This document shows positions 28,407 through 63,059 of a DNA stretch of 64,000 nucleotides, piece after piece (position 1 is the stretch's first letter; each line of letters begins with the position of its first letter). The notes below the pieces were generated by a model. It searched no databases. It was not told the origin of the DNA and saw only the letters and a program-made list of their open reading frames with translations. The translations under genes were made by a program, and so were the position numbers. Source of the stretch: Podarcis pityusensis (lineage: Eukaryota). Location: NCBI GenBank assembly GCA_964106645.2, contig OZ067043.1; one strand, written 5' to 3'.

Positions 28407-29022
28407 TGTCATGAACTGGCAGGATGATGGGGAGGAGGAAGAGGGGTGTATCCAGGACTGGAACACATTGGGGCAAGTCATGGATGGGGAAGGAAGTACT
28501 GACAGGGTGACCGAGAATGGCAAGGGGATGGGGGTCAGTGCACAGGAACCAGAGCAGCAGGACCCATCACTGGAGCCAGAGAGGCCCTTGTCTCCACAAA
28601 CATGGTAGGCTCTGAGACATAGGGAGCAGTGGGAGTGGTGCTCTAGGAGGCTAAGGCAGGCAAGGACCCACAGCCCAACTCCCTAGCTGGCCAGGTGGGG
28701 CTCACTAGCTCTGGGAGAAGGTGTGTGATTCCTCAGCTGGAGAAGGCTTGGAACAGGTGAGGGTTGCATGCCTCATCAAGCCCAGATGCTGCAGTCAGCA
28801 TGCAAAAGGGAAGCAGAGCTGAGGTGCTGTGTCTGCTCAACTGCTCATGTTGATGGGCCTTGACTTGGATGCACCTGGACCTCTAGGGGACTGTGCTTCA
28901 GGTTTGACTCTGAACTGTATCCTGACTGCTGGTCTTCAGACTTGGCTACTTGGTTCGTCCCTGGACTGCATTTTCTGACTTTTGCACTTTGGACTTGACA
29001 CACTGCCTTGCTGCCAGGTAGG
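28407..29022 (+). mobile_element. Solo LTR-like element, 3' terminus missing
   Basis: Starts TGtcatgaactggcaggatga and is colinear with the inverted copy at 62571-63059 up to cttgctgccaggtagg. Confidence 0.7.
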
Positions 29023-37128: not shown

Positions 37129-37294
37129 AAATGTGGAAATACTGTAAGAAAGAAATGTATCTAGGCCTATGTTTTTGATGTAACTATATACAGTGTTACC
37201 TCGGTTTATGAACTTAATCCGTTCCGGAAGTCCGTTCTTAAACCAAGATCGTTCTTAAACTGAGGGACACATTCCCTAATGAGGCCTCCCACTG
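37129..37294 (-). repeat. Inverted duplicate of 37841-38006 (166 bp, 1 mismatch)
   Basis: Base-by-base reverse-complement match including the MITE right half and about 60 bp of unique flank. Confidence 0.95.
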
Positions 37295-37703: not shown

Positions 37704-37944
37704 CAGTGGTACCTCAGTTTAAGAACAGTCCTTTTTACAAATGATTCAGTTTACGAACTCCGCAAAACCGGAAGTAGTGTCCCAGTTTGAGAACTTTACC
37801 TCAGTCTAAGAATGGAATCCAAATGGTGGAAGGGCACCGGCAGTGGGAGGCCTCATTAGGGAATGTGTCCCTCAGTTTAAGAACGATCTTGGTTTAAGAA
37901 CGGACTTCCGGAACGGATTAAGTTCATAAACCGAGGTAACACTG
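37704..37944. mobile_element. Tc1/mariner (Tigger/pogo-like) MITE
   Basis: TA-cagtggtacctcagttta ... taaaccgaggtaacactg-TA, i.e. TIRs with a TA TSD. Confidence 0.9.
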
Positions 37945-39568
37945 TATATAGTTACATCAAAAACATAGGCCTAGATACATTTCTTACTTACAGTATTTCC
38001 ACATTTCCCTGGCTTCCATATGGCATGACTGTTCTAATCAAAGTGCCCCAATAGAAAGGGGAATGGAAGAGGCAGAACCTGTCATTTGGCAATCCGTCAT
38101 CTGGCATTTGGTAATTCTTCTCAGGGTAAACCTAACCCAATAGGTAGTACAGGCAGTTGTCTGGGATAGCAGAATCTCAGGGGCTCTAACCTAATTGGAA
38201 AAATAATCTTGGGTGAACAGCATCCTCCCTCTTAGACCTATGGGGCAATATGCTTTAATGTATTGGAAGTCAACTATGCATTCATTTCCCAGTTGCAGAC
38301 CTTCCCCTTCATTCTGTGCAGACGATGGAGTAAGAGTCCTTTACTTTTGTTTCTTTGTGTAGAAAGCTAACAAGGCTGCAATGAAGAAAATCCTTGAAGA
38401 GGAAACACAATCCCCCCTCTTCACTACATAAAACAAAATGTTGGGGGAGGGGGAATTAATTTTTGCCTAAGGCAGCAAAATAGCCGGAGCCAGCTCTGAC
38501 TCAAACAAGTACAGTAATAACCTTGATGATGCAGAATTTATCTTGCCCATCTGCATCTACTCACTGCATGCAGCTAGTTGTTAATTTCCCAGGGAATTCC
38601 TTGCCTTTCGATCACAGCTGAAATAACCAATCTTGATGATGTACCATGTTTCTACAGGAGTGCTATAATGTGAACAGTTGAGAGAAATCCTGAGGGGACA
38701 ATCAATACCATTAATCTACTGTTGGTGGGGGGGGGGGAATGACTGTGTGGAGGAGGATTGTGATTACTCCAAGCTTTTCAAAAGTAGAAGCTAACTCTGC
38801 CTTGTTCTGTTGAACTGTGTGAATGATCATTCAGGGGCTAGGATCCTGCTCCCTCTCCCTAAGGTCATTTCATGAGCTGCAGATTTCCCCGCATATGTGT
38901 GTGTGGCTGCAACCCATTTCCATGCATCAGTGGAATTTTGCCACTGATTTTAGGGTGGTGGTGGGAGAAGGAGTGGCTTGCATCCAAAGATTATGGGACC
39001 CCTCTGCTTAAAATTGGGATTTGAGCTTTCCAAAGGTTCAGATATGCAGCCCTCTTGGAATGTAAAACAAAAACAGAATATGAAACTGGATTATTTGTAC
39101 ACAAGGAACACTTTGCAAATTAGGTGTAGCTGCGCCAGCCTCAATCTATCAGCCCCAAGAAGGTGACAGTGTACAATGCTCTTCAGATAGATTTTCATGA
39201 CCAATTTATCTATCAATCATTATCTTGATGGATTGGAGTAGTTAATTGTGTCAATGGTGATTTCTAGAGGGCCCAGTTTTGGATTAATTAATTGACTGGC
39301 CGCAGTGACTACTTCAGCACCACTAGGGTCTGCCAGTGAGTCTGCTCATTAGCACAAGATGAGTTACAAATTGAGAACAATGCTGACTATGTGTGGGAGA
39401 AGCATATTTATTCTTGATTGTATTATGCACAGTGTAGCTCTGCTGTGAGCTTCATGTCATACAATGGTATACAAGGTCACAGTCTAGCACACATATATTC
39501 TTTGGTGCCCACTAAAGTTAAGTGAAAATCCTATTAAACATTACAGTGTAGGAAGACAGCATTGTAGA

Positions 39569-50015: not shown

Positions 50016-50440
50016 TTATCCAGATTCCTAATGGACAGCTTTCTCCATCATATTGTCTACTTAGGCCAGACACTACAATAAGGTTTTAAAAAATATATCT
50101 AATGAAGTATGAGCTGGATAGATACCAGCCCCTTCTGGGTGCTAGGACAGGTAGCAGGACTGCTTGCAAGAACAAGAAGTTGGTGATCTTTCCAGAAGCA
50201 GTGGGTGGCATGCTGGGGTTCAGCAGCTCAACTGATGGTCACCTGGCTGCATCCCTGAAGCATACTAGGACAGAGAGAGGGAGGTTGGCATGGTGCAGTC
50301 TGGTGTTCCTGCCAGTGCATTGCACTGCACTGACCTCATTGCTGCACCCCTCCCCTTCTCAGTCCCAGTGTGCTACCATTTCTACAGAAGTCAAGTGACT
50401 GGCATAGCCTCACCACGCTATCTGCTGTTGCTATCTATTC

Positions 50441-51366
50441 TGAACAAAATAACACAACATGATGGCCAATAACAATGACACTAAACACTATTTATAGATT
50501 AATACACATGATCAGAAATTGCAACCAAAGTCTCTAAATCTTCTTCACCAGTCGTGGTAGAATAATTCAAAAGTTCAATATATACATAATCTGTCACCAA
50601 ATATCACCGGAACAGAGTTTCCGGATAATCAATCTGTTTCGTTCAATGCTTCATCAGCCAATCTTGATCAATTCTTCATCAGCCAGACTTGTAAGAATTA
50701 ATATGAGAAGGATGCAGTTCAATTTCTTAACAAGCTGAAATTACAATATACATGCGATGAAACCTGCGTCTGTATAAAATAAATTGCATAATACAATATA
50801 TACAACTAAGATTCATACCCAGTCTTACATGTAAGTAAATATAAATGCTGTAGAAAGCAATGATCCACTGACTGGACGGGGTACTGTTTTCATCTGGTTG
50901 TCAGGCATTCTTGCTGTTAATGTTGTGCTGTGTCTTTAATTTCCCTTACTGTATATTAGTTTCACCTGTGGCTAACTATATTATGTTCTTTACAATTTGT
51001 TACCAGCATCAGTTACTACAGTATCATATGAGTACTGATCCAGAGCATATTTTCTGCAGTATTTATATTTACTTACATGTAAGATTGGGTATGTATCTTA
51101 GTTGGGTATGTATCTTAGCACTGAACAAAACAGATTGGTTATCCGGAACTCTGTTCCGGTGATATTTGGTGGCAGATTATGTATATATCGAACTTTTGAA
51201 TTATTCTACCGCGACTGGTGAAGAAGTTTTAGAGACCTTGGTTGCAATTTCTGATCATTTGTATTAGTCTATAAATAGTGTTTAGTGCCATTGTTATTGG
51301 CCATCGTGTTGTGTTATTTTGTTCAGCTTGTCTATATTGCAACACAGGGTTCTGTTTATGGATTAT
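50441..51366. mobile_element. Penelope-like retroelement insertion with inverted arms and 15-bp TSD
   Basis: Identical tgttgctatctattc at 50426-50440 and 51367-51381. Arms 50440-50650 / 51118-51326 and 50803-50856 / 51051-51104 are reverse complements. The left arm contains a hammerhead motif. Confidence 0.8.
50606..50662 (-). ncRNA. Type I hammerhead ribozyme motif (PLE-associated, minimal stem II)
   Basis: Minus strand: attgg-CTGATGA-ag cattgaa c-GAAA-caga[ttgattatccggaaac]tctg-T-T-ccggt. Stem III is ACAGA/UCUGU, stem I is AUUGG/CCGGU with two G:U pairs, and the predicted cleavage triplet is GUU. Confidence 0.7.
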
Positions 51367-51619
51367 TGTTGCTATCTATTCAGCAAATCAGATTGGGAGG
51401 AAGTCTGAAAAAAGGAAACCTCATTTTAATATATCTAATTTTCTTTGTAGATCTTGCCAGGTAAAATGGCAATGGTCCTTGCAAGGTGAATTTGTGTGTA
51501 TGTGGTGCCCCTCTAGTCTCACTGATAAATCCCAGTGGCTTTTGAGATGTTTGGATGAAAGCTGTGATGCAAGATGCTCTAGTAGCAAACAATTTGAACA
51601 TGATAATTAAAAGGCTAAT

Positions 51620-52135
51620 ATGGACCAATGAACTTACTCCCCCAAACACCCTGCAAATTAGAGCTATAGCCCAAGGCTGTGTAAAATAATCAACATAAGG
51701 CTGATTTAATTATATAAACAAATTCAGGCTAAACAATTATCTTTAATATAATAATAATAATCCATATGCAAACATTCAATTAAATTCTAGTAAATCTGAG
51801 CAAGTCAGTAGAAAAATTCCAAATGTAACCAATTTTACTTGTTAGCTAACAGCCACTGATGAAAAGAGGAGTCAAAATGCATGTGGCACTTTTGATTGGA
51901 CTGAGCTGATTTGCTTCTAAGATTGCATGAACTTGGGACTCTTTGATTGCTTTGAAAACGATTGCCTCTAAGATTGGTTACATTTGGAATTTTTCTACTG
52001 ACTTGATAGGCTTAGATTTAATTGTACGTTTGCTTATGACATATTATTATATTTAAGACAGTTGATTAGACAGAATTTGTTTATATAATTCGATAAACAT
52101 TAATTATTGGGCAGTGGGTTCATTTAGTTCAGTCT
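51620..52135. mobile_element. Older Penelope-like fold-back remnant with degenerate hammerhead motif
   Basis: Inverted arms 51708-51833 / 51973-52090, with the inner 33 bp perfect. The spacer contains gcca-CTGATGA-aaagaggagtc-AAAA-tgcatg-tggc (51852-51887). Confidence 0.65.
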
Positions 52136-62570: not shown

Positions 62571-63059
62571 AGTCCTGAACCCCTGGCCTACCTGGCAGCA
62601 AGTCACTATGTCAGGTCCAAAATTCAAAGCCCAAGTTCCAAAGGTCAGGAAACATGCTAGCTGCATCATCTGGTCTCGATGAAGCATGTGACCCTCACCT
62701 GTTCCAAGCCTACTCCAGCTGAGGAATCACACCCCTCCTTCAGAGCTAGCGAACCCCACCTGGCCAGCTAGGGAGCTGAGCTGTGGGCCCTTGCCTGTCT
62801 CAGTCTCCTAGACCGCTCCTCCCACTGTTGCCTACAGCTCAGAGCCCACCATGTTCATGGAGACAGGGGCCCCTCTGTCTCTAGTGATGGATCCTGTTGC
62901 TCTGGTTCCTGTGCATTGACTCCCATCCCCTCACCATCCTCCATCATCCTGTGAATACTTCCTTCCACATTCCCTGCTTGCCCTGGTGTGTCCCAGTCCT
63001 GGTTACTCCGCTTGCTGGGATCCTCTTCCTCCTTCCTGTCATCCTGCCAGTTCATGGCA
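62571..63059 (-). mobile_element. Solo LTR with 5-bp TSD (Gypsy- or class III ERV-like)
   Basis: tccat at 62566-62570 and 63060-63064; imperfect terminal IR agtcctgaac / gttcatggca; homologous to 28407-29022. Confidence 0.75.

Follow-up and report, generated by a model that had tools for sequence, protein, structure and literature searches.

A hammerhead ribozyme motif with a one-pair helix II in the terminal repeat of a likely Penelope-like element (PLE) insertion

A complete hammerhead core lies on the minus strand

We analyzed a 64-kb stretch of DNA (hereafter the window) and identified a type I hammerhead motif that can be read directly in the sequence on the minus strand, from 50662 to 50606. 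The core elements CUGANGA, GAAA and UH are present in the right order, and helices I and III are pairable around them with 5 bp each (Table 1) – helix I having 4 bp when the letters of the wider family described below are substituted. In place of a canonical helix II with a loop-loop contact there is a lone G-C pair, to which folding assigns a probability of P <= 0.002.

Table 1. Coordinates of the hammerhead motif, the insertion that carries it and associated features.
Feature	Position	Strand	Comment
Type I hammerhead motif	50606..50662	-	Complete core, one-pair helix II, 5-bp helix III, GUU site
Stem I 5' strand AUUGG	50662-50658	-	
Core box CUGAUGA	50657-50651	-	
One extra A after A9	50650	-	
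G10.1 and C11.1	50649 and 50641	-	Single helix II pair around a 7-nt loop
Core box GAAA	50640-50637	-	
Stem III, ACAGA with UCUGU	50637-50633 with 50616-50612	-	
Inside of helix III	50617..50632	-	In the family: 4-bp extension, 4-nt loop, 4-nt bulge
Palindrome UCCGGA in loop III	50625-50620	-	
U17	50611	-	Predicted cleavage between 50611 and 50610
Stem I 3' strand CCGGU	50610-50606	-	
Upstream unit of the 25-nt tandem duplication of the ribozyme 5' half	50661..50686	-	
84-nt GT-AG intron	50735..50818	-	Retained in this copy, spliced out in other family copies
94-nt alternative intron	50735..50828	-	Upstream donor, same acceptor; one run (X4)
Target-site duplication, left copy	50426..50440	+	15 nt, exact
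Inverted 5'-truncated pLTR-like arm	50441..50856	-	Tail-less end; holds the hammerhead and the retained intron
Filler between the two arms	50857..50859		Three bases at the point of inversion; family sequence diverges on both sides (loose ends at 50856 and 50860)
Forward arm	50860..51326	+	3' part of the preceding unit, then a pLTR copy with a 152-nt deletion
Tail	51327..51366	+	40 nt, this end only; in other copies, loose ends at 50440 lead into it
Target-site duplication, right copy	51367..51381	+	15 nt

An earlier note on this DNA had reported a complete-core hammerhead here, and every sequence element that it listed is present. We built a structural descriptor from the core boxes, the G10.1-C11.1 pair, a stem III of at least 4 or at least 5 bp and a stem I of at least 4 bp, with G:U pairs allowed. 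Within the window it matched this locus only, once from each CUGAUGA box, and it matched none of 150 dinucleotide-shuffled windows – a significance somewhat overstated, since the descriptor was composed with the motif already seen. The bare CUGANGA..GAAA pattern showed no enrichment (11 matches versus 6.9 expected; 15 of 100 shuffles reached 11). Rfam hammerhead models, which the earlier note had pointed to as a check, returned no match over the window at gathering thresholds or over 50300-51500 at E<=10. The 57-mer folds no better than its shuffles (z = -0.50), and its minimum-energy fold differs from the hammerhead. The helix layout explains why Rfam and minimal-hammerhead descriptors would overlook such families. 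We conclude that the hammerhead motif at 50662-50606, with its complete core, is real.

The 5' half of the ribozyme is duplicated in tandem, and family contigs show that this 25-nt duplication is common to the family. The two units are identical at 20 of 26 positions; in the upstream unit CUGAUGA is intact (50682-50676), the GAAA box has decayed and an alternative stem I is on offer. The second partial copy noticed earlier is one half of a family-wide duplication and not a separate remnant. A 10-bp hairpin (50703-50668, minus strand) is predicted to place the upstream box in its loop in longer contexts and could govern which of the two boxes is available. Two other placements of the core were rejected: taking a second GAAA-like run (50621-50618) as the core would put a G at position 11.1 and leave no helix II, and a permuted type II or III hammerhead using the upstream box lacks GAAA in the required place.

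The motif sits in an insertion with inverted arms

The segment that carries the motif is 926 nt long (50441-51366) and is flanked by an exact 15-nt direct repeat, for which the chance expectation is roughly 7e-7. Its two inverted arms are 94% identical over 211 nt and 93% identical over 54 nt. A 152-nt deletion in the forward arm takes out CUGAUGA, and G12 has changed to A, leaving a dead second ribozyme. Where the forward arm lost these 152 nt there is an exact 17-nt tandem duplication (51085-51118) with a template-switch-like appearance.

Nine letters, UUCAG followed by CUUG, are common to the intron acceptor (50734-50741) and the boundary between arm and tail (51319-51330); the tail-less end therefore falls on a site that resembles a splice acceptor. 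We considered a further spliced intron with its end at 50441 and rejected it, as none of the loose ends listed supports such a junction.

The window contains 20 reading frames of at least 120 aa, the longest of 218. A Pfam scan of 300 frames (all 259 of at least 66 aa in the window and 41 of the 50 shorter ones near the locus) gave no match, and thus neither RT nor GIY-YIG sequence in the truncated copy nor a host exon. No long frame follows the ribozyme, and the 205 nt after it hold no open frame even with family letters. The window looks like non-coding vertebrate DNA, with nearby repeat motifs of a reptile-like kind.

Several other features lie in the window. Near the insertion lies a second, older inverted-arm element (51696-52102; arms 69% identical over about 400 nt) with no similarity to the first. 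It carries a decayed motif of the classic PLE minimal layout (51852-51887, plus strand), with a 4-bp stem I, CUGAUGA plus A and a palindromic helix III, in which G12 of the GAAA box has become A and position 17 is a G. A recent inverted repeat of 166 nt (37129-37294 and 37841-38006, 546 nt apart) is 99.4% identical. A roughly 400-nt repeat occurs in two copies of opposite orientation (28407-28802 and 62653-63059, 82% identical). A tRNA-like sequence (18955-19024, minus strand; anticodon CUU (Lys); Rfam 47.6 bits; damaged acceptor stem) is likely a pseudogene or SINE head, and 22052-22180 is an assembly gap of 129 N.

The element belongs to a dispersed family

Parts of the stretch are present in 20 of the 24 sequencing runs listed; these 20 come from 10 studies, and none is listed as RNA. 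We compared family members in contigs of four of them, from four studies: the DNA runs X1, X4 and X10, and X15, which is by our guess probably RNA. Run X1 may be close to the source of the window, so independent weight rests on X4, X10 and X15. Variants, loose ends and contig pieces are those listed, and short diverged unitigs are under-counted in a way that favours the consensus.

Summed contig depth over 50612-50689, relative to the unique flank at 50378-50429, was 64-191 versus 5 in X1, 1223-1932 versus 32-43 in X4 and 606-922 versus 8 in X10, contig depth not being the same as copy number. Depth climbs toward the 50441 end of the element, as expected from 5' truncation. The contigs reveal a dispersed family in several related organisms.

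Contig ends clarify the organization of the family. Loose ends at 50440 continue into the tail sequence, which identifies the tail as family sequence, and a few copies terminate at 50440 with other flanks. Contigs of all four runs join 51050 (plus) to 50856 (minus), giving the order of the master unit. Ten of the 15 joints listed for other copies map to 51006-51019, eight of them clean skips and two with filler of unknown sequence; the pLTR in the forward arm likely starts near these positions. Loose ends in X1 and X4 show that family sequence extends upstream of 50860.

The left junction of the insertion is covered by contigs from three organisms, with a reach into the element of only 29, 29 and 11 letters – short of the 31-letter bridging rule. 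An X4 loose end agrees at 30 of 30 letters with the state that is private to the forward arm. These observations suggest that the insertion is shared among related organisms. Exact-pattern scans for related loci found none in metagenome contigs and none in viral contigs, and short-motif searches of readable literature supplements gave no match to the family, of which an earlier description elsewhere is possible.

A pLTR intron and the overall architecture point to a PLE

Loose ends of other family copies, behind 50735 and 50734, correspond to splice junctions of the intron that this copy retains. The predicted 84-nt junction agrees with loose ends in X1 (16/16 letters), X10 (8/8) and X15 (12/13), and X4 contains a matching 84-nt skip; the predicted 94-nt junction agrees with an X4 loose end at 17 of 17 letters. 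One X10 contig with the 84-nt junction appears one base shorter. Depth in X15 is 4-5 over the intron, compared with 29 and 50-69 over the neighbouring exon parts, which is a weak hint of spliced transcripts; with zero depth on the unique flank (50300-50429), this run is uninformative on expression of the present copy. No position at which many molecules start or stop was listed in the contigs.

Craig et al. 2021 (PMC8557442) describe a PLE layout that consists of an inverted 5'-truncated copy, a one-ended tail of 30-40 bp and a pLTR hammerhead, and name as further PLE traits that the pLTR can hold a short intron in the 5' UTR and that introns are retained. Frangieh et al. 2024 (PMC11167929) worked on a lizard PLE and linked its tail to a pair of internal RT start sites. 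The present element has an inverted 5'-truncated copy beside a pLTR, a 40-nt one-sided tail, a retained pLTR intron and a 3'-biased dispersed family, and its match to these two descriptions supports the PLE reading. The intron is the strongest independent support for this identity. As described in PMC8557442 and PMC4209133, Penelope of Drosophila virilis likewise has a 5' UTR pLTR intron (75 bp) that lies upstream of the hammerhead and is retained in genomic copies. The intron described here differs in having 84 or 94 nt and two donors, and its acceptor lies 73 nt upstream of stem I, not at stem I. Unlike a non-LTR retrozyme, in which head-to-tail units each carry a canonical hammerhead, the present element has inverted arms and has lost one ribozyme to deletion. 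The target-site duplication, inverted arms, tail, pLTR intron and dispersed family thus agree with the PLE link at which the earlier note had hinted. As the scans found no RT or GIY-YIG frame, we assign PLE membership from architecture, and on that basis regard a PLE origin of the family as very likely.

A possible history of the insertion can be outlined from PLE biology. The element RNA would begin near 51006-51019. Reverse transcription, once started at the tail site, would read back across the pLTR and enter the unit before it, to be truncated at 50860. A second, inverted pLTR copy would then be added from unspliced RNA.

This copy has lost a helix III pair that the family keeps

Relative to the family majority, this copy differs at 2 of 57 sites in the motif, 5 of 165 downstream and 0 of 73 upstream. 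At this divergence of about 3%, motif included, chance alone would be expected to leave the 17-nt core intact (P about 0.66), with no need to invoke selection.

One of the two changes in the motif is private. Position 50629 is G on the RNA strand in 98-100% of the depth in all four runs; in the family majority this G extends helix III by four pairs, and its replacement in the window drops the closing G:C pair of the extension and weakens helix III. The other concerns 50606, where the window has U but C makes up 65-83% of the depth in the four runs; the majority thus lacks the fifth pair of stem I. Both arms of this copy have the U, which either came from the source element or reflects parallel CpG loss.

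This closing pair is also the one decayed stem I base. The earlier note had explained the G:U pairs of stem I by C-to-T decay from ACCGG, which needs changes at 50660 and 50661. A contig of X1 with a depth of 62 of about 65 differs from the window over 50610-50721 at one position, evidently 50629 (where all X1 depth differs), and in neither X4 nor X10 does more than one unlisted A>G site reach 8%. The G:U pairs are therefore the family state, and decay from ACCGG is rejected.

Across the family, the pairs of helices I and III are nearly invariant. Among the variants listed, the one exception is a one-sided change at 50609 from G:C to G:U, which accounts for 21-47% of the depth in X1, X4 and X10, and there is no compensatory pair change, within what is a homogeneous family. 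A diverged X15 contig has both C3 and C11.1 changed, so dead copies exist.

Folding was modelled with ViennaRNA, which carries no tertiary energy for the core, and no active control was included, so that gaps of 8-15 kcal/mol overstate inactivity by an unknown amount and the energies are informative only as comparisons between forms. In the 57-mer of this copy, UCCGGA is predicted to pair with the 3' strand of stem I (P = 0.91-0.94) and helix III is rarely formed (P = 0.06); with family letters the two are nearly balanced, at 0.49 for the sequestering pairing versus 0.51 for helix III. Loss of the G:C pair at 50629 would thus favour a hairpin in which the strand with the cleavage site is sequestered. 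The energy needed to force the hammerhead is 12.5-14.6 kcal/mol in this copy and 11.0-12.5 kcal/mol with family letters; through the upstream box, it is 12.2-12.3 and 8.0-8.6 kcal/mol, respectively. This copy is therefore predicted to fold mostly into an inactive shape.

The models also speak against the dimer through the palindromic loop that the earlier note had envisaged. The palindrome is off-centre in loop III, it contributes to the 4-bp helix III extension in the family, and in this copy UCCGGA is predicted to trap the stem I 3' strand. A double hammerhead with a palindrome duplex reaches -11.3 kcal/mol (forced pairs only), compared with -27.5 kcal/mol for the best dimer fold, which is inactive. 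The interrupted 9-bp helix III of the family would make a dimer unnecessary, but a helix II of one pair and a 4-bp helix I rich in wobble pairs suggest that the family form would be slow. The family form may be an active variant, at odds ranging from doubtful to roughly even.

The helix layout differs from that of published PLE hammerheads

In Cervera & de la Pena 2014 (PMC4209133), PLE minimal hammerheads are defined as combining a long helix II with a helix III that is minimal and palindromic, together with one additional base following A9, and are described as weakly active even as dimers. Among the 56 representative metazoan motifs in Fig. S3 of that paper, we counted helix II lengths of 3-8 bp with none below 3 bp, and U17 in 24 rows; in the PLE consensus, A9 and G10.1 are separated by an extra nucleotide. 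The single G-C pair had previously been likened to stem II of these minimal hammerheads, a comparison that this count contradicts: there it is helix III that is reduced.

The family shares with the metazoan minimal hammerheads, as presented in that source, the type I topology, a short helix I, CUGANGA with an extra nucleotide, G10.1-C11.1, the common U17 and the pLTR position, as well as opposite-strand copies 100-700 bp apart in truncated insertions. In the metazoan motifs, helix III is tiny and palindromic and depends on dimerization. The present family instead combines a single-pair helix II with a helix III of 5+4 bp and has its CUGAUGA strand in duplicate, a layout unlike that of all 56 motifs of the published set. 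Long helix III forms do occur among the fungal and protist PLEs described in the same paper.

A structural likeness is found outside animal elements, with no sequence relationship implied. The chrysovirus and fusarivirus type I hammerheads described in PMC13725137 also have a long helix III, a helix II of 1-2 bp and no evident loop-loop contact. They lie in RNA-virus UTRs and are backed by covariation, cleavage at about 0.01 per min and RNA ends in vivo, whereas the present family is known from sequence alone. In the full-text literature searched we found the combination of one-pair helix II and long helix III described only in these viruses and in no animal PLE.

Two further PLE groups bear comparison. 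Poseidon of Anolis carolinensis (PAc), as described in PMC11167929, also has a pLTR ribozyme upstream of an optional 30-40 nt tail, which some copies have at their end and others lack. By the same description its ORF starts at stem II, which is formed, whereas at this locus the ribozyme is not continued by a frame and the tail is found 165-205 nt past stem I. The HHR_core motifs of Naiads (PMC8557442) have CUGANGA and GAAA 7-17 nt apart (10 nt here) and, as here, no canonical helix II; they fit no relaxed stem descriptors, in contrast to the well-formed helices I and III at this locus. The account of Naiads in that source reports them among vertebrates from fish only.

A terminal-repeat ribozyme in a probably decaying copy of a likely PLE

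We consider it probable that the motif is the terminal-repeat hammerhead of a likely PLE family, carried by a truncated inverted insertion that is likely decaying neutrally and would cleave itself poorly or not at all. The ribozyme would then serve the RNA cycle of the element rather than the host locus, by cutting slowly, or with protein assistance, at a site downstream from the intron of the 5' UTR.

Under the most serious competing reading, the ribozyme of the family as a whole is a dead relic. A normal long-helix-II PLE hammerhead would have been wrecked in the master by the tandem duplication and the loss of helix II, and the element would have spread since then with no need for cleavage. 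Naiad PLEs spread without canonical hammerheads, some keeping core boxes without fitting stems (10 HHR_core entries in PMC8557442), and in the PMC11167929 experiments the PAc hammerhead, which cleaved with its protein and not alone, was dispensable for insertion in vitro, where hammerhead mutants had no effect. The missing compensatory changes among the variants listed, and an active fold that models place 8-12.5 kcal/mol above the ensemble even with family letters, are also in keeping with a relic. Against this, the family retains all core bases, G10.1-C11.1, the extra A, the 5-bp helix III with its 4-bp extension and a pairable stem I; decay of GAAA is confined to the upstream duplicate; and the viral hammerheads of like design do cleave. 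On balance we regard a relic as a realistic possibility, though one that falls short of even odds.

We give somewhat less credence to a non-autonomous PLE derivative, retrozyme-like or SINE-like, that has no coding partner in cis. The frameless 205 nt past the ribozyme would fit such a derivative, as would the account in preprint 10.64898/2026.07.22.740005 that animal retrozymes derive from pLTRs. The family nevertheless continues upstream of 50860, there is no head-to-tail array here and a frame could start beyond the tail, so this reading appears unlikely.

That this very copy would cleave itself measurably if transcribed, as monomer or dimer and possibly via the upstream CUGAUGA with its better stem I, seems improbable. 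Its core is intact, and the upstream box matches the descriptor and narrows the modelled energy gap both in this copy and with family letters. Yet the competing hairpin is predicted to take up 91-94% of the 57-mer ensemble, the forced double hammerhead lies about 16 kcal/mol above the best dimer fold, and inversion of the arms with deletion of the second ribozyme leaves no tandem partner in cis. The same preprint describes eight of nine genomic Xenopus retrozyme dimers as showing no cleavage.

Finally, a host-domesticated single-copy ribozyme, comparable to the conserved intronic hammerheads of amniotes, could draw on the left junction, which contigs of three organisms cover with the short reach given above, but is highly improbable given a many-copy family, a motif whose divergence keeps pace with the remainder of the arm, a private change that harms the fold and the lack of a host exon in the Pfam scan.

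Implications for PLE hammerheads

Because hammerheads in PLE pLTRs are already known, reptiles included, the terminal-repeat hammerhead at this locus is best viewed as a fossil copy of an ordinary kind. More can be learned from the family than from this one member. Genomic copies in spliced form, by either of two donors, and in unspliced form open a way to study how PLE introns are retained in a vertebrate.

We tentatively propose that a vertebrate PLE family may have swapped a dimer-dependent minimal hammerhead for a chrysovirus-type, monomer-competent ribozyme with a one-pair helix II and a long helix III. Such a ribozyme would have two interchangeable CUGAUGA strands and a CCGG palindrome that could toggle between active and cleavage-blocked folds, a short way downstream from an alternatively spliced pLTR intron. 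As a young, homogeneous family with a dimer-free ribozyme design, it would provide a clean construct for testing selection on low, switchable or protein-assisted cleavage.
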